From the sequence record MN158210.1: a DNA stretch of 52,716 nucleotides, one strand, 5' to 3'. Both the position numbers and the translations under genes were made by a program. The DNA comes from Escherichia phage BEK12A. The notes under the pieces are model-generated. The model was not told where the DNA came from and did not search any database. It saw only the letters and a list, made by a program, of their open reading frames with translations. Below, one piece after another: positions 31,475 to 40,527 of this stretch (within the stretch, counting starts at the first letter, position 1; every line of letters starts with the position of its first letter).

Positions 31475-31909
31475 ATGAAACTTAAATCATCTTTACTTAT
31501 CGCAGCTTTGGCATTAACAGGTTGTGGATTTAAAAAGACAGTGCACACTGATTTTAATATCAACTCTTGCACAAACTTAACAATGAATGTTGTGATGCAT
31601 TCAGCATCAAAGGCATACCATGATTCATGGTATAACAAAAACAGAGACACGATCAAATATATCGCTTACAGTGAGTGCAAGTCATCAATCGAAAACAATT
31701 TAATAGAAAACATCGGCACGAAATATAATTTTGTACGCGAAAAGGAAAAGTACATCACCCCATCAAAGCCTAGTGATATTGATATTTCAAATGTTCTTTC
31801 GGAAGTTCCAGAGATAATAACCTATGCTCACGCTGTAGGTTCAAAGCTCGCAACTACATCAAAGGTTGAGACTATCGAGATCTCAAAGAAGGCAAACGAA
31901 GTTTTTTAA
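31475..31909 (+). CDS. lipoprotein of unknown function
   Basis: MKLKSSLLIAALALTGCGF signal peptide with lipobox. Confidence 0.55.
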   Translation: MKLKSSLLIAALALTGCGFKKTVHTDFNINSCTNLTMNVVMHSASKAYHDSWYNKNRDTIKYIAYSECKSSIENNLIENIGTKYNFVREKEKYITPSKPSDIDISNVLSEVPEIITYAHAVGSKLATTSKVETIEISKKANEVF

Positions 31910-31925: not shown

Positions 31926-32651
31926 ATGGCTAAATATATTTTAGATAAAGACACCCATGACGCATTCGTTAGCTTTGAGCAGTTGGAGAGAGAAACGTTT
32001 ATAGGGAATGCCCTTGCAACTGGAGGCCATTACCAGGCAGTAAAGCCAAATCAATATTATAAGGTAAGCGGCAACCGATACGCTGGAAGCACCACGCCGG
32101 ACGTTGTGCGAGATATGTGGAGCACGCCTCAAGAGATCGTGGAGTGGATGGAATCAGAATTTGGTGAATACGATCTCGACGCGGCAGCAAGCCAGGAAAA
32201 CGCAGTTTGCGAGAAGTTCTATAGCAAGGAAACAAACTGCTTAAAGCGTTGGTGGGGTAGCAACAAGCACGTATGGCTTAACCCGCCGTACAGCAACCCA
32301 ACTCCATTTATCAAGAAAGCAATTGAGCAAATGGAGCACAACAACCAAATTGATGTTTTGTTGCCAGCCGACAACTCTACAGCATGGTTTTATGAGTCGC
32401 AGAAAAACGCGGCTGAAATCATCTGGATCACTGGCGAGGTTTACGAAGAGGGTGGAGTAGAATACTCCCGCACCGGAAGAATCGCCTTTGTGTCTGGATT
32501 GACTGGCGAGCCTGTGCAGGGCAACAACAAGGGGAGCGTGATTTTTGTCATGCGCAAACTTAAAGAAGGAGAGGAGCAGAAAACGCGATACGTTAAGATC
32601 AGCGATATTTGCCCTTCTGTAACCGAACGCCGCGCGCGCAAACGGAGCTAA
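31926..32651 (+). CDS. dam: DNA N6-adenine methyltransferase (Dam-like)
   Basis: catalytic NPPY motif in HVWLNPPYSNP; start at second ATG after RBS (first ATG at 31920 possible). Confidence 0.75.
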   Translation: MAKYILDKDTHDAFVSFEQLERETFIGNALATGGHYQAVKPNQYYKVSGNRYAGSTTPDVVRDMWSTPQEIVEWMESEFGEYDLDAAASQENAVCEKFYSKETNCLKRWWGSNKHVWLNPPYSNPTPFIKKAIEQMEHNNQIDVLLPADNSTAWFYESQKNAAEIIWITGEVYEEGGVEYSRTGRIAFVSGLTGEPVQGNNKGSVIFVMRKLKEGEEQKTRYVKISDICPSVTERRARKRS

Positions 32652-32655
32652 CACG

Positions 32656-32913
32656 ATGAAAAAAGAGAGAAGCGTTTATTTAAATGAAACTGGCGAATGG
32701 TTGTTATTTCGCGCTATGGTGTGCGATGCACTTGATAAAAATCCTAACGTGAAAAAGATGATTGATTGCGATCCGTGGGAATTTTCAAGCGCATTAGATA
32801 TGAGCTTTGAGGAGACAAGAAAACTCCCGCTTGAAAAATGGCACGAACAAATCAGAAATGACATGCAAGAGTTTGTCGATTCGTGGAATTTTCAGCACGG
32901 AATGATCCACTAA
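32656..32913 (+). CDS. hypothetical protein
   Basis: 85 aa ORF ending in TAA that abuts the conserved box. Confidence 0.45.
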   Translation: MKKERSVYLNETGEWLLFRAMVCDALDKNPNVKKMIDCDPWEFSSALDMSFEETRKLPLEKWHEQIRNDMQEFVDSWNFQHGMIH

Positions 32914-32957
32914 TAGCACTTTTTGTTAAAACGCCCGGCCTAGTGTCGGGCATAATT
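32914..32957 (+). promoter_or_regulatory. conserved box - hairpin - CATAAT module
   Basis: ATAGCACTTTTTGTTAAAAC, CGCCCGGCCTAGTGTCGGGC, ATAATT; inverted twin at 36135-36173. Confidence 0.6.
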
Positions 32958-32988
32958 ATTTCAACGAAGCAAACATGAGGAAATAAAA

Positions 32989-33168
32989 ATGGTGGTATTC
33001 GATAAACGCGCTTTTAATCTTGCTCAAGAAGTAGCAAAAGGTTCAGTGGATGGCGGTTCAAAGGAAGGATTCCAGTTTGATTGGGAGATCGCAATGTTTT
33101 TACTGAAAGTTGCATACGGTCACGCACCAATTGAACAAGCGGAGGCATATTATAAGCATGAAGGTTGA
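32989..33168 (+). CDS. small hypothetical protein (59 aa, not in ORF track)
   Basis: ATG preceded by GAGGAAAT; stop overlaps next start (ATGA). Confidence 0.3.
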   Translation: MVVFDKRAFNLAQEVAKGSVDGGSKEGFQFDWEIAMFLLKVAYGHAPIEQAEAYYKHEG

Positions 33169-33400
33169 GCAAGGAAGAGATGCGGTATGGAATCACGCTA
33201 AAGAATGCGGTATTGCCGACGATATAAAGAAGATCGCGCAATACTTTGATATTGCAGATGTGAGCATAATTAGCGGCGACAAGATGACTTTCCTCAAGGA
33301 AAGGCCGCGAAAAATGGTAAGAGTTCCAGCAGTTCCAACAAAAATTGATTTCAAAGAGGCAATGGCTAAAATCCGAGAGCCTCGCAAATATTATAAATGA
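33158..33400 (+). CDS. hypothetical protein
   Basis: ATG at codon 17 of the 33110 ORF; about 80 aa. Confidence 0.4.
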   Translation: MKVEQGRDAVWNHAKECGIADDIKKIAQYFDIADVSIISGDKMTFLKERPRKMVRVPAVPTKIDFKEAMAKIREPRKYYK

Positions 33401-33494
33401 GGATAGTTATCATGTGGCGCTTGTTTGTTCTACCGTTACCCGTTATCATCGCTGTTACAGTTATGTACCATATAGTAATGAGATAGGTAGCAGA

Positions 33495-34610
33495 ATGAAA
33501 AATGTAAAAATTACAGATGAGCAATTCAAGATCGAACGGGCGGCAGGTAAGACATATAAACAGATCGCTCAAGAGTACGGAATGAATGTGAGAAGCGTCG
33601 AGCGTCGCGCGGCGCGTCTTGCAAAGCAAGGACAGTTATCGACCATTGGAGCGCCTGGTTTTGGTGTTCATGGTGAGTCAGTAATGACCGACAAAGAAGG
33701 CAACATAATCCTCAAGTGGACCAAAACCAGCAAGGACAAAGAGCAATTAGAAGCATTGATGCGCGCAGCAATGGAGGCGTTTAGCGAGGAAGTGCCGCGA
33801 TTAGATCCAGTTCCATTGCAGGAGCGTGACTATAATGAAACGCTTTCATTGTATCCGATCTTTGACATGCACTTAGGCGCTATGGCCCATAAGCACGAAT
33901 GCGGCGAAAATTGGGATACTGCGACGGCGGAGCGCGTTATGAATAACTTTATCGACTATGCTTTGATGTGCGCACCTGACAGTGAAAAGGCTGTTATCCT
34001 GATTGGTGGCGACATGCTTCATAGCGATGGCCTGGAGGCTGTGACCCCTGCAAGCGGTCACGTACTTGATCAAGATAGCCGATATGCAAAATTGGTTTAC
34101 GTTGCAATACGTGCAATGCGCCGCGCAATTAATAAAATGCTGTTAAAGCATAAACATGTTGAGGTCCAGATCGTTGAGGGCAATCACGACCAATCAGGAA
34201 TGATTTGGCTACGCGCAGCAATGGCGGCAGCATATGAGAACGAGCCGCGCGTTTACGTTGATGTTTCTCCTCGCGTTGTTCACCACACGCAATACGGAAA
34301 AACTTTCCTTGCGTACCATCACGGGCACACAGTGCGCAAACCTGAGACTTTGCTAATGATGTGCGCGTCAGATTGGCGGGAGGACTTCGGAAACTCAAAA
34401 ACGATGTATGCGCACGTAGGGCACTGGCATCACCAGACCGTGACGGAAACGTCGCTTGGGATCGTGGAGGTACATAGCACCCTGGCGGCAAAAGACGCAT
34501 ACGCCGCGCGCGGTGGCTGGAGATCTCGACGCCGTGCAGCGGTTATCATTTACGACAAAGAGCATGGAGAAGTTGGGCGATTTGTTCACTATCCAGAAAT
34601 GATGAATTGA
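33495..34610 (+). CDS. metallophosphoesterase with N-terminal HTH-like domain
   Basis: calcineurin-like motifs DMHLG, GGDMLH, GNHD, HHGH, GHWHH; N-terminal YKQIAQEYGMNVRSVERR helix-turn-helix-like. Confidence 0.6.
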   Translation: MKNVKITDEQFKIERAAGKTYKQIAQEYGMNVRSVERRAARLAKQGQLSTIGAPGFGVHGESVMTDKEGNIILKWTKTSKDKEQLEALMRAAMEAFSEEVPRLDPVPLQERDYNETLSLYPIFDMHLGAMAHKHECGENWDTATAERVMNNFIDYALMCAPDSEKAVILIGGDMLHSDGLEAVTPASGHVLDQDSRYAKLVYVAIRAMRRAINKMLLKHKHVEVQIVEGNHDQSGMIWLRAAMAAAYENEPRVYVDVSPRVVHHTQYGKTFLAYHHGHTVRKPETLLMMCASDWREDFGNSKTMYAHVGHWHHQTVTETSLGIVEVHSTLAAKDAYAARGGWRSRRRAAVIIYDKEHGEVGRFVHYPEMMN

Positions 34611-34658
34611 TGAATTTTTATTTAAATCAATGACAAATTAAATCAAAAACTTGCAAAG

Positions 34659-34686
34659 GGGCGGCGTTTGTCGCCTCTTTTTTTTG
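34659..34686 (+). terminator. rho-independent terminator
   Basis: GGCGGCGTTTGTCGCC hairpin plus TCTTTTTTTTG. Confidence 0.55.
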
Positions 34687-34755
34687 TTTAATTTTTTACC
34701 ATGTGCGTTTATCATGCGGTCAATATATTGACTTTAATTAATATGGAGAATAAAA

Positions 34756-34971
34756 ATGAAAGATTTTATTAACGCAGCTACCGCCGGATCTGGCGGTTCA
34801 TCTATCGCAAGCGCCGCTACAGGGCAGTTAACCATTGCTATTGCCAGCTTTGTTTTAATGGCTGCATTCGGTGCATGGGGCGCTTACCTTCGCTGGCGTG
34901 ATAGTAAAAAATTCCACGAGGCGATCGAAAAAGGTGATATTCAAAAAGCTATTGAAATCAGGGGCAAGTAA
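34756..34971 (+). CDS. holin
   Basis: 71 aa, hydrophobic TM segment and charged C-terminus, immediately upstream of endolysin. Confidence 0.6.
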
Positions 34972-35462
34972 TGAGCATAAAGAACAAGGTAGCGGCTGCG
35001 GCCTTTGGCGTTGCGGTTGCCTTGACTTCTCCACTTCTTGAAGAGATCGAAGGGGTAAGATACAAGCCATACAAAGATATTGCGGGAGTATGGACGGTTT
35101 GCGCAGGAATCACCGGACCTGATGTTATCCTGGGGAAAACGTACACTAAAAAAGAGTGTGATGCTTTGTTGGCTAAGCATATCCAGGTTGCTAAAAAGGA
35201 AGTTGACAAGCAAGTTAAGGTTGACATTCCTGATAGTATGCGTGCAGCAATGTACTCATTCACTTACAATGCAGGTGTGGGAGCTTTCAGAAATTCAACA
35301 ATGCTGAAACTCATCAACCAGGGGAAATTAAACGAGGCTTGCGATCAGCTTTATCGTTGGACGTATTACCATAACCCCAAAACAGGAAAGCGCGAGAAGT
35401 CTAAAGGCTTACTTAACAGGCGCAAGGTCGAATACAAATATTGCACGATGGATCTGAAATGA
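34971..35462 (+). CDS. endolysin (lysozyme, glycoside hydrolase family 24-like)
   Basis: catalytic E in LEEIEG and T4-lysozyme-like [16 protein letters not shown] block; ATGA overlaps. Confidence 0.75.
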
Positions 35463-35854
35463 TGAAGAAATTTTTACTTACACCAATCGCAATGGCGGTG
35501 ATCTTGTCTGGATGTTCAAGCGTTACGCCACTGACCGGATTAATCGGCAGTAAGCCGGAAATAACAGCACAGGCTGGCGCGGAGAACGTTAAGCAGACAG
35601 TTGGCATTACATCAAAGCAGGACGCCAGCACAAAACAGGAAACCACAATAAAGGAATCTGCGGTTGACAAGGTGGACACGTCCAGCAAGAAGGATTTCAC
35701 AACATCAACCATTCAGGCCAATACCATCAAGGCAGACAAAATTCAGGTCGTGCAGGGTAATAACGGCAGATGGTACGATCCAATAATCATATGCGTGGTT
35801 GTGTTCATTGTGCTGATTTGTCTTTACTGGAGGGAAAAGAAAAAGGAGGCTTAA
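35459..35854 (+). CDS. unimolecular spanin (lipoprotein with C-terminal transmembrane anchor)
   Basis: N-terminal lipobox AVILSGCSS and C-terminal [18 protein letters not shown] in a single 131-aa protein; last gene of lysis cassette. Confidence 0.65.
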
Positions 35855-35870
35855 TGCCTCCTTTATTTTT
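35844..35870. terminator. terminator between convergent operons
   Basis: AGGAGGCTTAATGCCTCCT plus TTTATTTTT. Confidence 0.55.
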
Positions 35871-36093
35871 ATGCGTCTGGCCACATATGAGTTTCGTTTG
35901 TTGGCTTGTTCGATTCGTCGTGCTGCCTTACTTCAATGCTGCAAGTGTCGCCGTACAGTTCTGCAATCTTGCGCTCATTTTCAACCGCCGATTGCTCGCT
36001 CCATCCAAAATCCCTGTCGTAAATTGTCGGTATTTCAGCAGAAGATCCGTTGTCATGATTATATACGCGAACTACTAAAAACTTGCTGGACAT
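35869..36093 (-). CDS. hypothetical protein
   Basis: 74 aa; RBS AAAAGG; last gene of leftward early operon. Confidence 0.45.
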   Translation of the reverse strand: MSSKFLVVRVYNHDNGSSAEIPTIYDRDFGWSEQSAVENERKIAELYGDTCSIEVRQHDESNKPTNETHMWPDA

Positions 36094-36129
36094 AATTTTA
36101 CCTTTTGGTTGTTTCGTTTCGATGAAACA

Positions 36130-36173
36130 AATATACCCGACACTAGGCCGGGCGTTTTAACAAAAAATGCTAT
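36130..36173 (-). promoter_or_regulatory. conserved box - hairpin - TATATT module (leftward)
   Basis: minus strand ATAGCATTTTTTGTTAAAAC, GCCCGGCCTAGTGTCGGG, TATATT, then CATCGAAACGAA box. Confidence 0.6.
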
Positions 36174-36364
36174 TCCATACGCTTTACCGTAACCAGTAAT
36201 ACACCATCATCATTGCATAAAACATGTTCAGTGGTGCTAAAAGCGCGCATATCTGAATAAAGTAGCGTAAGTAAAGCATGAATAAAATCCTCATGTGATA
36301 TTGAATTTACGGCGCAGTGCTTCAAGATCTTGTCTATTAGCTTTTGCCTGGAACAATTCATCAT
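36170..36364 (-). CDS. hypothetical small protein (start uncertain)
   Basis: stop TAG lies inside the conserved box like other early genes; 5' end overlaps upstream gene; possible RBS GGGGAGA. Confidence 0.3.
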   Translation of the reverse strand: MMNCSRQKLIDKILKHCAVNSISHEDFIHALLTLLYSDMRAFSTTEHVLCNDDGVLLVTVKRME

Positions 36365-36686
36365 CGCCCATCTCCCCTATTCTCGCCATATCCCTGATCC
36401 AGTCGTTGCGCATACCATCCAGGCTATACAATTCGAATCCGAAAGGCCGCTTTGATGATCCTTTGGACCAGTATTTTCCGCAGACCCCATCTATATAACC
36501 AGCCGTCATCATTCTTGCGCAAAATTCCTTAGATGCAAGGCTGGCGAACATTCGCGGCGTAAGTCCGGCGGCCCGCGCGAGCCGCTCGCATTCTCTATGC
36601 TGATAGATAAATTTGGCTATGTGCTGCCTGTTAAACCAGTCGTATGACTCACACCATTTATACAGATCAAGCAAAAACATAATCAT
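36291..36686 (-). CDS. hypothetical protein
   Basis: 131 aa, start overlaps stop of ATPase gene. Confidence 0.45.
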   Translation of the reverse strand: MIMFLLDLYKWCESYDWFNRQHIAKFIYQHRECERLARAAGLTPRMFASLASKEFCARMMTAGYIDGVCGKYWSKGSSKRPFGFELYSLDGMRNDWIRDMARIGEMGDDELFQAKANRQDLEALRRKFNIT

Positions 36687-38263
36687 CCCAGCAGTATTGG
36701 ATTGACAAAAATAACACCATTAATCACGCAAACATAATTTCTTTCTTCCAGCATTGGCAGCAAGTGCCCCTCTATCCTCTTCATTACGCCAGCCTGACCA
36801 ACGAAAGGTTTTACCTTTCTCGCTGATTCGTACAGGGCGCGAATATTCAGGATCCCTTTGTTAGCCTTGCCGTGCCTCGTGATCAATTCAATCAATTTAC
36901 CCATTTCAGCATCATCACCAGCATAACCAGAAGCATTGGCGGCGCTAATGTATGTTTTGCTCAATTCATGAAACATGATCAGCGCCTCTTGCATTGTTTC
37001 AACGTCGATCTCTTTCGACTTCTGCGGGTATCCAGCAGGATTAAACCAGTTGCGGATAACATGCAGGACGGAAGCAAGCCTGATCACCTGTTTATCCATT
37101 TTACCCAGCGCACCGCGTAACATTGTATGAGAATACTTTCCGCCGTCTGCAAGATGCGGTTCCATATCCTGGCGAGCAATGTTGAGCACTCGCATAGCTG
37201 AACGGCTTATTTTCAGCGATATATTTGATTCGCTCATGATGTTATGCACCAATTGATAATATTGGGCCTTCAATTCAGGATCCACCGCCTCATAGGTAGA
37301 ATCACCATTTTCATCAATGAATGAGCGACGGCCTAAGAATGATTCCTCACGGACCAACAAAAAGCGCTCACTCACACCGATACCGCGCGATCCAGCGTCC
37401 ATGATTCCGCTTATCGTTTCATCCTGGGCTATAACGCTCATACATCCAAGCGCGCGAAAACTCATGTTATTGTCAGCATTAGCACGGGCGATTGATACGT
37501 GACCATTATCCCACGCCTTAAGCACTAGCTCGCTGTTAGTCTTCCTTTCGCTATTGGCATATGTCAAGCCTAACAGGCTGTTAATACTTGTTGCTTCGTC
37601 AGATATTACGGCAAAGTTACCTTGCTTGTTGTTGATTTTCGCCAAGCCTTCTGGAGTTGTATCTGAAACAGGGAAAGTTATATCACACATTTTTTCCAGC
37701 TTCTCCTCCAGATCCTCTTTTTCCTGGTATAGAGATTCCATATCAGCGCCTGATCTTTCGCTTTTCATCTCCTTTGCAAGACCTGCCAACTTTGCCTGTA
37801 TTTTCTTTCTTTCCTTGCGGCGTTGCTCGTTGATCTTCTCAACTTCCGCAATCATCGGAGCAATAGCCATGCTGTTGATCGCAGATTTACCAGTTGACGG
37901 CGGCTGGCTTGTAACGACGTAAAGCGCAGTCGGCTGATCGGTCCCGTGATAGTCAACCGTAAAGCGTCCAAGCATGGCGGCAGAAATGCAGCCGATAAAG
38001 TGCATGTAAGCCGATGATTCAGGGAATTGAATGGATCGCGCAATACTGCGTGATAACTTTCCGACAACATCAATATCATTACCAAGAGAAATGACGGGGT
38101 AGCGATCGTGACCGCTATTTACATCCTTTACGTCGCCCCAAAAGCTGGACGACTGGCGATAGCCGTTAGCCTGAATTGATACGCGAACTGGTGAAAGGTT
38201 CTGGCTTTCAGCCATAGCGATTATTTGCTGTGGAGTTAATTTGTTCGTTTCTAATGAAAACAT
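36683..38263 (-). CDS. P-loop NTPase of unknown function
   Basis: Walker A-like QPPSTGKS and Walker B-like AVISDEAT separated by a charged coiled-coil segment; RBS AAAGGAG. Confidence 0.5.
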   Translation of the reverse strand: MFSLETNKLTPQQIIAMAESQNLSPVRVSIQANGYRQSSSFWGDVKDVNSGHDRYPVISLGNDIDVVGKLSRSIARSIQFPESSAYMHFIGCISAAMLGRFTVDYHGTDQPTALYVVTSQPPSTGKSAINSMAIAPMIAEVEKINEQRRKERKKIQAKLAGLAKEMKSERSGADMESLYQEKEDLEEKLEKMCDITFPVSDTTPEGLAKINNKQGNFAVISDEATSINSLLGLTYANSERKTNSELVLKAWDNGHVSIARANADNNMSFRALGCMSVIAQDETISGIMDAGSRGIGVSERFLLVREESFLGRRSFIDENGDSTYEAVDPELKAQYYQLVHNIMSESNISLKISRSAMRVLNIARQDMEPHLADGGKYSHTMLRGALGKMDKQVIRLASVLHVIRNWFNPAGYPQKSKEIDVETMQEALIMFHELSKTYISAANASGYAGDDAEMGKLIELITRHGKANKGILNIRALYESARKVKPFVGQAGVMKRIEGHLLPMLEERNYVCVINGVIFVNPILLG

Positions 38264-38294
38264 TCGTTAGCTTCTCCTTTGTGGGCCGTAAATT

Positions 38295-38335
38295 TTAACG
38301 GCCCAATACTACCCCGTTTTGTCAAAAAGTGCTAT
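38295..38335 (-). promoter_or_regulatory. conserved box (variant TTGACAAAAC) - hairpin module (leftward)
   Basis: minus strand ATAGCACTTTTTGACAAAAC, then 18 bp, then TAAAAT inside hairpin GGGCCGTTAAAATTTACGGCCC. Confidence 0.55.
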
Positions 38336-38553
38336 TTGATCCGCTCTATTGCAACCAGAAGTCGATCAGGCTGGCGGTCGCTGTAGCATTCTCCTGTAAT
38401 CCCATCCTTAAACGTAAAGTAAAGCGCCTTATGATATGAAAAACCAATCAGCCAACCTACCGACGTTTTTTTGATGGGCCTGACTATATCGCCAGGCTTG
38501 AAGGTTTTTGTTGCTGAATTAGTAACCTTATAGCGATATTCAGTCTTGATCAT
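38332..38553 (-). CDS. hypothetical protein
   Basis: ATG at codon 40 of the 38670 ORF, overlapping HNH stop; about 73 aa; stop TAG in box. Confidence 0.4.
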   Translation of the reverse strand: MIKTEYRYKVTNSATKTFKPGDIVRPIKKTSVGWLIGFSYHKALYFTFKDGITGECYSDRQPDRLLVAIERIK

Positions 38554-39061
38554 AAGGCTTCTCGCTTCCGTGGTTTTCGTGGAATCCGTACTTTTTCCAA
38601 ATAGCATCTCTTGATGATACAGCGCTATCAATTGATGCATGATAACCACCAGAAATACACCTGCCATCAACAGTTACTTGTACGCACCATTTAGACACCC
38701 TCTTATTCCACATCACGCCAGTATAACCAGATTTATTTGTCGATCTCCTTGTGTGGTTTTGTGAGTTTTGTTTTCTTGTGACAAGCCGGAGGTTTTCGAT
38801 TCTATTGTCATCTCTTATGTGATTCACGTGATCTATCTCCATTCCTTTTGGTATTGTTTTTCCATGCATCCACCAAACAATCCAATGCGCCGGATACTCT
38901 CTGCCACCAATACCTATACGTCTATATCCGTTTTTAGTTATATAACCTGCCTCATCGCCAATTTTTGCCCGTCTTCCTGATGGGCTTTTCCATAATAGAC
39001 GACCATTTTCATATATAAATAAATTTAGAAGTACTTGCCTTGAAATTCCGCTATTGCACAT
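38540..39061 (-). CDS. HNH homing endonuclease
   Basis: HWIVWWMHG...EIDHVNHIRDDNRIENLRLVTRKQNSQN. Confidence 0.8.
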   Translation of the reverse strand: MCNSGISRQVLLNLFIYENGRLLWKSPSGRRAKIGDEAGYITKNGYRRIGIGGREYPAHWIVWWMHGKTIPKGMEIDHVNHIRDDNRIENLRLVTRKQNSQNHTRRSTNKSGYTGVMWNKRVSKWCVQVTVDGRCISGGYHASIDSAVSSRDAIWKKYGFHENHGSEKPYDQD

Positions 39062-39252
39062 TTAAATCCCACCTCGCGTCTTTCAAGAGTCCATTGCTCA
39101 CCTTGAGCATCAACAACGTAACCAGCTACAGCGCCTAAAACCCTTCCCATAATTATCTCATAGCGTTTCCCTTCCTTAAAATGCTGACCTGGCTTTACGC
39201 TGTTCATGTGGTGGTAAACTTTTGTGCATTTTATTGTTCTCTTCTTTGTCAT
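39025..39252 (-). CDS. hypothetical protein
   Basis: 75 aa; RBS AAAGGAGAAATAAACG. Confidence 0.45.
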   Translation of the reverse strand: MTKKRTIKCTKVYHHMNSVKPGQHFKEGKRYEIIMGRVLGAVAGYVVDAQGEQWTLERREVGFKCAIAEFQGKYF

Positions 39253-39283
39253 CGTTTATTTCTCCTTTCGTTTCGGTGAAGTG

Positions 39284-39327
39284 ATTATGCCAGGTTTTTA
39301 CACCTGGCTTTTAACAAAAAGTGCTAT
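39284..39327 (-). promoter_or_regulatory. conserved box - hairpin - CATAAT module (leftward)
   Basis: minus strand ATAGCACTTTTTGTTAAAAG, CCAGGTGTAAAAACCTGG, CATAAT, CACCGAAACGAA. Confidence 0.6.
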
Positions 39328-40010
39328 TTTGAGTTTGACTCAAAGACGGCGCGAGCAAATCCGCGCGGAGTGAGGGAGCGTAGTTGCTTTGTTCTGGCAG
39401 ACTTACCGCCTAAAAACTTCCAACCCCAAAAGAACATTACGCCCTCATCATTGGATAACGGCTTGCGTTCCGGTTCTGTAAATCCGTTGCCGCACCAGAT
39501 AGCAGTCCTTTTTGTGTAGCCATCCTTTAGCGGCATCTTGGGGTGAAAAGATCCATCGGATTCGTCCAGGTAGTTACCAAAATCGCGAGGATTGAAATAA
39601 AAATCAGGCTTGCGCCATAGCGTTGATAGTCGGCCTACAGGATTCTCAGCCATCCAGGGAACACCGAAATGATTCCCGACAGTTTCAACCATGATTGCAT
39701 TTTTGAGCGCAACCTGAATATCATCATCGCTTCGCACGTGCTTGATTCCTGATTGGGCAAACATGGTGCAGTCTGGAAATCCAAATACAATATCTGGTTT
39801 TGGAATACCAATCTTACTGATTCTTTCAATGAAATTTTCATCAATCCACATATTCACATAATGCAGATTTTCATGTTTCATCTTGATGAAATATTCGCCG
39901 TGATTGCCTTCATCAGCGTTAAAGCAATAGCATTGATAGCCAGCCTTCGCATATTCAAGCAGCATGATTCCAGATCCATCAAACATTGAGTAAGCAACTT
40001 TATTTCCCAT
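39324..40010 (-). CDS. putative DNA methyltransferase-like protein (divergent C5-cytosine MTase-like motifs)
   Basis: FDGSG (motif I-like), GFPDCTMFAQSG (PC-motif-like with an insertion), ENPVG (ENV-like); divergent, so assignment is tentative. Confidence 0.35.
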   Translation of the reverse strand: MGNKVAYSMFDGSGIMLLEYAKAGYQCYCFNADEGNHGEYFIKMKHENLHYVNMWIDENFIERISKIGIPKPDIVFGFPDCTMFAQSGIKHVRSDDDIQVALKNAIMVETVGNHFGVPWMAENPVGRLSTLWRKPDFYFNPRDFGNYLDESDGSFHPKMPLKDGYTKRTAIWCGNGFTEPERKPLSNDEGVMFFWGWKFLGGKSARTKQLRSLTPRGFARAVFESNSK

Positions 40011-40527
40011 GATTTTTATGATACCCCAATTCATTCTCGGCTTTACGTTTTGCGGCAACAGCATCTCCAAAACTGGAAAAACAACCTATATAAATCCTAC
40101 TTCCTCTCCTTCCGCCTCCAACCCTTACAACCCATTTGCCATGTTTATTTTTATGCACACCTGGTATGCCACTTGTATTGTTTTTCTGCTTTGATGTGTT
40201 TCGCATATTTCCTTTGTGATCTTTTAACTCAAAGTTTATTGCTCTGTTATCAGTCGTAATGTGATTTACGTGATCAACCTCCTTTCCTTCCGGTATAGGC
40301 CCATAGTGCATTTCATAGCATATTCTATGAACTTTCAGGTTATAACGTTTTCCGTTTACAGTAAGTGCAGTTTCTAAATATCTGCCACCACTACCCAAAG
40401 AGCCAACCTCATTACCAGCATTGCAAGCATTCCATTGTTTAACTCTTGATGGGTGAATATCTTTTCTTTCTTTCCAGAACAGCTTTCCAGTTTCTGGATT
40501 GTATGTAAAGTAATCGTGCCAATTCAT
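40000..40527 (-). CDS. HNH homing endonuclease (HNH plus AP2-like)
   Basis: HRICYEMHYGPIPEGKEVDHVNHITTDNRAIN; C-terminal AP2-like segment similar to 528..1019. Confidence 0.8.
   Translation of the reverse strand: MNWHDYFTYNPETGKLFWKERKDIHPSRVKQWNACNAGNEVGSLGSGGRYLETALTVNGKRYNLKVHRICYEMHYGPIPEGKEVDHVNHITTDNRAINFELKDHKGNMRNTSKQKNNTSGIPGVHKNKHGKWVVRVGGGRRGSRIYIGCFSSFGDAVAAKRKAENELGYHKNHGK

Follow-up and report, generated by a model that had tools for sequence, protein, structure and literature searches.

The window analysed here, a 52,716-nucleotide stretch from Escherichia phage BEK12A (sequence record MN158210.1), carries two genes that were originally predicted to encode DNA methyltransferases: a rightward gene, dam, with the catalytic NPPY motif of N6-adenine methyltransferases, and a leftward gene, here called dcm-like, whose product resembles C5-cytosine methyltransferases. 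Both open reading frames (ORFs) exist at the predicted coordinates (Table 1). The 8.8 kb around the two genes are 100% identical to Escherichia phage BEK26 (MN158216.1, 52,716 bp; Drexlerviridae, Tempevirinae, Warwickvirus), and the record of that phage contains the same two coding sequences, annotated as 'DNA adenine methyltransferase' and 'hypothetical protein', respectively. Each of 23 further phage records covers at least 80% of this 8.8 kb query. Taking the evidence as a whole, we put at roughly 80% the probability that the two genes encode independent orphan DNA methyltransferases that depend on S-adenosylmethionine (AdoMet) and belong to different transcription units, namely, a T1-type Dam and a mini C5-cytosine methyltransferase. 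Both genes belong to already known phage methyltransferase families, and the dcm-like gene has already been annotated in sister phages.

Table 1. Positions of the genes and protein motifs at the locus, in window coordinates; aa, amino acid position in the respective protein
Feature	Position	Strand	Basis
T1-type Dam (DNA N6-adenine methyltransferase), 241 aa	31926..32651	+	PF05869, TIGR01712, PHROG 111
Dam catalytic motif IV, NPPY, aa 119-122	32280..32291	+	Direct reading; WLNPPYS in T1 Dam
DUF3987 protein	36683-38263	-	PF13148 at 8e-44, PHROG 2373 'DNA helicase'; hypothetical in the BEK26 annotation
Minimal C5-cytosine DNA methyltransferase ('Dcm-like', PHROG 757), 228 aa, FPDC allele (predicted)	39324..40010	-	
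Motif IX-like C-terminal helix RSLTPRGFARAVFESN	39333..39380	-	R211, P215, G217, A221 at least 90% conserved
Very short segment resembling a target-recognition domain, aa 178-210, including the conserved WGWKFLGGKSARTK loop	39381..39479	-	Position between motifs VIII and IX
Motif VIII-like YTKRT, Y165/K167/T169 invariant	39504..39518	-	Alignment columns
Motif VI ENPVG, aa 122-126, Glu122 the predicted N3 protonator	39633..39647	-	Aligns with ENV of E. coli Dcm (hhalign)
Motif IV GFPDC, aa 77-81, predicted catalytic Cys81	39768..39782	-	Aligns with GGPPC of M.HaeIII
Motif I (AdoMet loop) FDGSG, aa 10-14	39969..39983	-	Aligns with FSGAGG (M.HaeIII) and FAGIGG (E. coli Dcm)
HNH homing endonuclease gene	40000..40527	-	PF13392 at 2.9e-14, PHROG 99 at 1.4e-50; its stop overlaps the dcm-like start

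The Dam gene and the separation of the two loci

The rightward gene is, as predicted, a Dam-type N6-adenine methyltransferase gene. Its product matches PF05869 (3.2e-61; 206.3 bits against a cutoff of 28.1), the equivalog model TIGR01712 (phage_N6A_met, 'phage N-6-adenine-methyltransferase'; 8.1e-54, 181.6 bits against a cutoff of 97.05) and PHROG 111 (6e-86). It is 66% identical over 218 aa to the Dam protein of phage T1 (ST20; M.EcoT1Dam), with which it shares the NPPY motif as well as the genomic position, after the helicase and VRR-NUC genes, and from which it differs in nothing notable; the Dam protein of E. coli, in contrast, is unrelated to the T1-type in sequence family. T1 Dam is a GATC-specific methyltransferase that produces N6-methyladenine, as described in the T1 literature of 1984-1990. 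Given the 66% identity to T1 Dam, the most likely target of the enzyme encoded in the window is the adenine within GATC sites of phage DNA. The GATC sites number 298 in the genome against 192 ± 13 expected from dinucleotide shuffles and are thus over-represented rather than avoided. The ATG at 31926 is preceded, 8 nt upstream, by GGAG. In all, this is an ordinary, already described phage Dam.

The original prediction grouped dam and the dcm-like gene under one span, which is not a single feature; unrelated genes separate the two. These are three small ORFs, a DNA-repair exonuclease/phosphoesterase gene (PHROG 704) and the holin, endolysin and spanin genes, followed by a terminator-like bidirectional hairpin, small leftward ORFs, the gene for the DUF3987 helicase and an HNH endonuclease gene. 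Under the proposed scheme, dam would belong to a rightward cluster of DNA metabolism genes, and the dcm-like gene to a leftward cluster of small genes.

Motifs, fold and conservation of the Dcm-like protein

The true start of the dcm-like gene is likely to be the ATG at 40010, which is in line with the N-termini of the family and lies across the stop codon of the HNH gene upstream. Longer readings of the gene (741 bp in PeterMerian; 244-248 aa, with 244 aa in metagenomes) extend into that HNH gene.

Several lines of evidence bear out the assignment of the 228-aa product as a divergent relative of the C5-cytosine methyltransferases. The protein matches PHROG 757, 'DNA methyltransferase', over its full length (aa 3-227) at 1.4e-77. 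In a single-sequence phmmer search, the best match among PDB sequences is M.HaeIII, and although this match is weak (E = 0.026), the alignment pairs FDGSG with motif I (FSGAGG) and GFPDC with GGPPC, the latter without a gap. Comparison of the family profile with E. coli Dcm by hhalign is marginal (E = 0.097) and covers motifs I-VI only, with motifs I, IV and VI in register. The AlphaFold2 model, built with 53 homologues, has a predicted local distance difference test score (pLDDT) of 89.6 and a predicted template modelling score (pTM) of 0.88, and Foldseek searches against the PDB and against viral models agree on a C5 methyltransferase fold. According to the model, the protein has the complete fold of a C5 DNA methyltransferase catalytic domain.

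The resemblance of FDGSG, GFPDC and ENPVG to motifs I, IV and VI, noted in the original prediction, is not a matter of chance, as these blocks fall in the most conserved columns of the family. We assessed conservation in a wide-family alignment of 67 sequences, with identities of 26-54%, and in a close-clade set of 53 sequences. In motif I, conservation among the close homologues reaches at least 90% at F10, D11, G12, S13 and G14, and the consensus of the wider family is LFDxTG. In motif IV, Cys81 is invariant in both sets (67/67 and 53/53), and Pro79 is present in 64 of the 67 wide-family sequences; in motif VI, the respective counts are 67/67 for E122, 62/67 for N123 and 66/67 for P124. The positions that are invariant throughout the wide family are C81, E122, P141, Y165, K167, T169, W172 and P180, and those conserved in at least 90% of its members include F78, P79, T82, G88, N123, P124, R211, P215 and G217. 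The close clade, in which motif IV reads FPDC or FPSC, retains Cys81, Glu122, Tyr165, Lys167 and Thr169, which implies purifying selection.

The two supposed insertions, at the catalytic PC and at ENV, find another explanation. The gapless alignment with M.HaeIII indicates a substitution of Asp for Pro at position 80, the family consensus of motif IV being FPPCTDLA. We read the change as a substitution because position 80 varies naturally between the fixed Pro79 and Cys81: the wide family has P48/V7/E6/D4 there, and the close clade has D37/S12/P3/Q1. Similarly, ENPV is the family-wide form of motif VI and not a lesion of this particular gene.

In the C-terminal part of the protein, W172 and R211 are only ~38 residues apart. 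Residues 178-210 would represent the target-recognition region, as suggested by their place between motifs VIII and IX. The helix that follows, RSLTPRGFARAV (RSLTPRGFA), resembles motif IX and, to judge from its pattern, is probably equivalent to the canonical form (R..TPRE.ARLQGF); the protein ends 17 residues past R211. In fold and family, the Dcm-like protein is a C5 methyltransferase reduced almost to the catalytic (Rossmann) domain, and this reduction accounts for both its short length and its invisibility to PF00145. M.HhaI and M.HaeIII (~325-330 aa) exceed it by ~100 residues or more, and it has half the length of E. coli Dcm (472 aa). Compared with canonical C5 methyltransferases (PF00145, including the catalytic domains of DNMT3A/B), it falls below all curated hidden Markov model (HMM) thresholds and lacks an evident motif X, and its motifs take the forms PxC-T, ENP and YxKxT. 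This Pfam-invisible family of ~225-aa proteins may comprise the smallest natural DNA C5-methyltransferases.

The family is widespread. Homologues were found in 1493 of 50,697 phage records (~3%), among them Drexlerviridae, Klebsiella siphophages, rV5-like myophages, Dhillonvirus and others, and also in prophage-like contexts in Enterobacterales. An exhaustive search yielded at least 779 family clusters (50% identity), most by far with proteins of 210-250 aa. This is an annotation blind spot: a family present in ~3% of sequenced phages is missed by Pfam and NCBIfam. For the BEK26 'hypothetical protein' (QGH77503.1), the annotation should be changed to Dcm-like C5-cytosine methyltransferase. Two further occurrences deserve mention. 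A homologue with 63% identity lies on the 3.6 Mb chromosome of Bdellovibrio sp. 22V, an unexpected host for a gene of the enterobacterial phage type, and a 1397-aa protein of an uncultured phage, labelled 'Helicase/UvrB, N-terminal' (BFVD A0A6J5SE15), matches the model of the mini-methyltransferase over ~233 columns with 27% identity.

Catalytic competence, target specificity and biological role

Direct experimental information comes from a homologue of the Dcm-like protein. Wang et al. (bioRxiv 10.1101/2023.08.16.553469; Cell Rep 2024;43:114857) studied the 711-bp dcm gene of the KarlJaspers-like Drexlerviridae phage K42. In four phages that escaped the retron Ec86, this gene or the sequence just upstream of it carried lesions, and expression of the gene was toxic only when the retron was present (bioRxiv 10.1101/2023.08.16.553469). 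In cells expressing K42 Dcm, mass spectrometry coupled to liquid chromatography (LC-MS) detected high 5-methylcytosine (5mC) on the multicopy single-stranded DNA (msDNA) of Ec86, which was not the case with a C82A/E128A/K175A/K176A mutant or with the empty vector, and 34 of 35 Ec86-sensitive phages encode such a Dcm (bioRxiv 10.1101/2023.08.16.553469).

The mutated residues C82/E128/K175/K176 of the K42-type enzyme map to C81/E122/K167/R168 of the protein encoded in the window. The corresponding proteins of KarlJaspers (bas06_0055) and Warwickvirus atuna (gp78), both encoded at the equivalent genomic position and 45% identical to the window protein, are 236 aa long, and C82, E128, K175 and K176 were confirmed to be in place in the latter. 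The window protein shares with K42/KarlJaspers Dcm the PHROG family, the length class (228 vs 236 aa), the syntenic slot and an almost identical C-terminus (18/22 identical residues in the C-terminal helix). The overall identity, however, is only 45%, with FPDC in the window protein as opposed to FPPC in the K42/KarlJaspers allele, and the segment resembling a target-recognition domain (TRD) retains only 10 of 29 residues. The activity, sequence specificity and biological role of the FPDC allele itself are inferred.

If the chemistry of the family applies, the target cytosine would be flipped out and attacked at C6 by Cys81, Glu122 would protonate N3, and Lys167 would take the role of the motif VIII arginine. 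The methyl group would then pass from AdoMet to C5, and beta-elimination would free the enzyme. Recognition of the target would be provided by the catalytic loop together with the ~35-aa segment between motifs VIII and IX.

A number of observations weigh against the view that the leftward gene encodes an active C5-cytosine methyltransferase. Pfam and NCBIfam scans of the protein returned no match, including none to PF00145, which is touched weakly by only 4 of the 67 family members (best E = 0.0067), and a search of PDB sequences with the family profile found nothing. Asp80 precedes the catalytic Cys where Pro is expected, motif VIII of the family is YxKxT in place of QxRxR, and no motif X (GN) is evident after the motif IX-like helix. 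The AlphaFold2 model is disordered solely at the loop 84-89, directly after the catalytic Cys, and the catalytic loop as a whole is identical to the KarlJaspers allele in only 8 of 30 positions, with a 5-aa deletion in the window protein. Furthermore, the available activity data come from the 45%-identical K42 enzyme, and the CCWGG specificity claimed for that enzyme was based on its name and on mutants of the msDNA stem, not on methylome mapping (bioRxiv 10.1101/2023.08.16.553469). Finally, the BASEL study did not find a simple link between Dcm-like methyltransferase genes and resistance to restriction.

The lack of Pfam and NCBIfam matches, the Asp next to the catalytic Cys, the shortened and diverged catalytic loop, and the small size of the protein (228 aa), in which the TRD is minimal and motif X is not obvious, could be taken to mean that it is catalytically dead or repurposed, for instance as a decoy that binds DNA, as an anti-restriction factor or as a regulator. 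We consider this unlikely. Cys81, Glu122, Lys167 and the AdoMet loop are strongly conserved in the close clade and in the wide family alike; Asp at position 80 is not a lesion, given the natural variation of this position among family members; the length and the motif forms are family-wide and common to the K42 enzyme reported to be active; and the fold of the model is that of a complete C5 methyltransferase catalytic domain. The suggestion in the original prediction that the gene may be degenerate or repurposed is therefore unsupported, Cys81, Glu122 and Lys167 being invariant across the family; the C5 methyltransferase fold and the reported activity of the 45%-identical syntenic homologue, which has the same residues, can be added.

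An active enzyme whose transferred group is not methyl but, say, the carboxymethyl of carboxy-S-adenosylmethionine (Cx-SAM), the product of E. coli CmoA, or that acts mainly on a substrate other than duplex DNA (single-stranded DNA or RNA) appears to us highly improbable. CmoX depends on a phage CmoA and on an Arg where motif X has Asn; among the scanned or annotated proteins of the region around the dcm-like locus, homologues of CmoA and CmoY were not noted; and the K42 homologue yields 5mC.

The least credible alternative makes dam and the dcm-like gene partners in function, or what is left of a restriction-modification module extending over 31926-40010, as the presence of two DNA methyltransferases in one phage, and their grouping in the original prediction, might suggest: the genes are 6.7 kb apart on opposite strands, with the lysis cassette and the hairpin at 35842-35864 between them, and the dcm-like allele has been exchanged independently of Dam, but what leads us to reject a pair is that T1 has Dam and lacks a dcm-like gene (no significant tblastn match) and that the nearby nucleases are all HNH homing endonucleases, none of them a restriction endonuclease. 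We favor two independent orphan enzymes, the leftward one a mini C5-cytosine methyltransferase.

With respect to specificity, orthology with E. coli Dcm and the EcoRII-type enzymes was considered and rejected, given the marginal hhalign result (E = 0.097), the lack of TRD similarity and the difference in length (228 vs 472 aa). Homology therefore supports neither the name 'Dcm' nor CCWGG specificity. For the Dcm-like enzymes of Drexlerviridae, the literature was searched for direct methylome data and gave only annotation-level mentions. CCWGG occurs 127 times in the genome against 55 ± 7 expected from dinucleotide shuffles and so is over-represented, not avoided; this count is compatible with CCWGG specificity but is not evidence for it, as site frequencies cannot establish specificity. 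Taken with the GATC count, it shows no avoidance by the phage of the sites of Dcm/EcoRII or Dam/DpnII-type enzymes.

As for the biological role, the likely benefit of the mini C5-cytosine methyltransferase would be the shielding of phage DNA from cytosine-sensitive restriction, and the likely cost would be sensing by the retron Ec86/Eco1, as triggered by the homologous K42 enzyme. The anti-restriction role proposed in the original prediction remains plausible, but neither the BASEL study nor the comparison of alleles yields a simple link to resistance. Allele type was examined as an explanation of the restriction resistance seen in the BASEL collection and was rejected, since FritzSarasin (Bas04) carries an FPPC allele and PeterMerian (Bas05) an FPDC allele, and both are resistant to restriction-modification. 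The allele of KarlJaspers (Bas06) is FPPC. The annotation as a Dcm-like C5 methyltransferase further predicts that BEK26 is a potential trigger of the retron Ec86/Eco1, which bears on predictions of host range and on phage therapy.

Allele exchange and neighbouring features

Essentially the same gene as in the window is present in PeterMerian (bas05_0050; 96.7% nucleotide identity), where it is annotated as 'Dcm-like C5 cytosine methyltransferase' and differs only in the annotated start (741 bp vs 687 bp) and the name. In Poky, JLBYU19 and mar001J1, the loci of which match the 8.8 kb query at 97.7-98.4%, a gene is annotated as 'putative DNA cytosine methyltransferase' or methylase. Compared with Warwickvirus atuna, the flanks of the gene are 97-98% identical, whereas homology is lost across 39411-40527, that is, over the body of the dcm-like gene and the upstream HNH gene; the final ~30 codons of the dcm-like gene are shared. 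Given this collapse of homology within nearly identical flanks, the FPDC allele and the HNH homing endonuclease gene form a mosaic cassette that stands in place of the FPPC allele. The overlap of the upstream HNH gene with the start of the dcm-like gene and its co-occurrence with the divergent allele suggest that the replacement was driven by homing.

A second HNH gene of the same type is located on the other side. The two HNH_3 genes (PF13392, PHROG 99), at 40000-40527 (-) and 38540-39061 (-), are 35% identical and bracket the dcm-like gene together with a 75-aa ORF. In comparison with Warwickvirus atuna, each of them has been inserted into, or has replaced part of, DNA that is otherwise 97-98% identical.

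The FPDC and FPPC alleles are 45% identical and differ most in the catalytic and TRD-like loops. A more far-reaching, and doubtful, reading is that the two alleles are functionally non-equivalent and may therefore methylate different or much more relaxed sequence contexts. If so, the turnover of alleles could reflect a tug-of-war between escape from restriction, on the one hand, and escape from sensors of phage cytosine methylation of the retron Ec86 type, on the other hand.

Several other features of the locus were recorded. The DUF3987 gene lies downstream of the dcm-like gene in the same leftward cluster. The hairpin at 35842-35864 has a perfect 9-bp stem (AAAGGAGGC..GCCTCCTTT) flanked by T-runs on both strands and is placed where the spanin gene and the leftward gene cluster converge; it resembles a bidirectional intrinsic terminator that parts two transcription units.

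A conserved intergenic element of ~70 bp is present in three copies, at 32905-32990 (+), 36110-36180 (-) and 39255-39328 (-), each oriented with transcription. It consists of AATAGCACTTTTTGTTAAAA, followed by a G+C hairpin and then by ATAAT..TTCACCGAAACGAA. The third copy sits between the stop of the dcm-like gene and the next gene and has the stem GCCAGG/CCTGGC, as opposed to GCCCGGCC/GGGC elsewhere, with the hairpin being kept. Copies of the element are present in PeterMerian and KarlJaspers as well, and in the T1 record, intergenic sites comparable in position are annotated as rho-independent terminators.

Between the VRR-NUC gene and dam, a 144-aa ORF (31475-31909, +) carries a lipoprotein-type signal (MKLKSSLLIAALALTGC). 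It has no counterpart in PeterMerian and other close relatives, in which similarity to the window begins at ~31904, and its only match is a weak one to PHROG 3739, a group of unknown function. Possibly, this ORF is a BEK26-specific moron or encodes a superinfection-exclusion lipoprotein.

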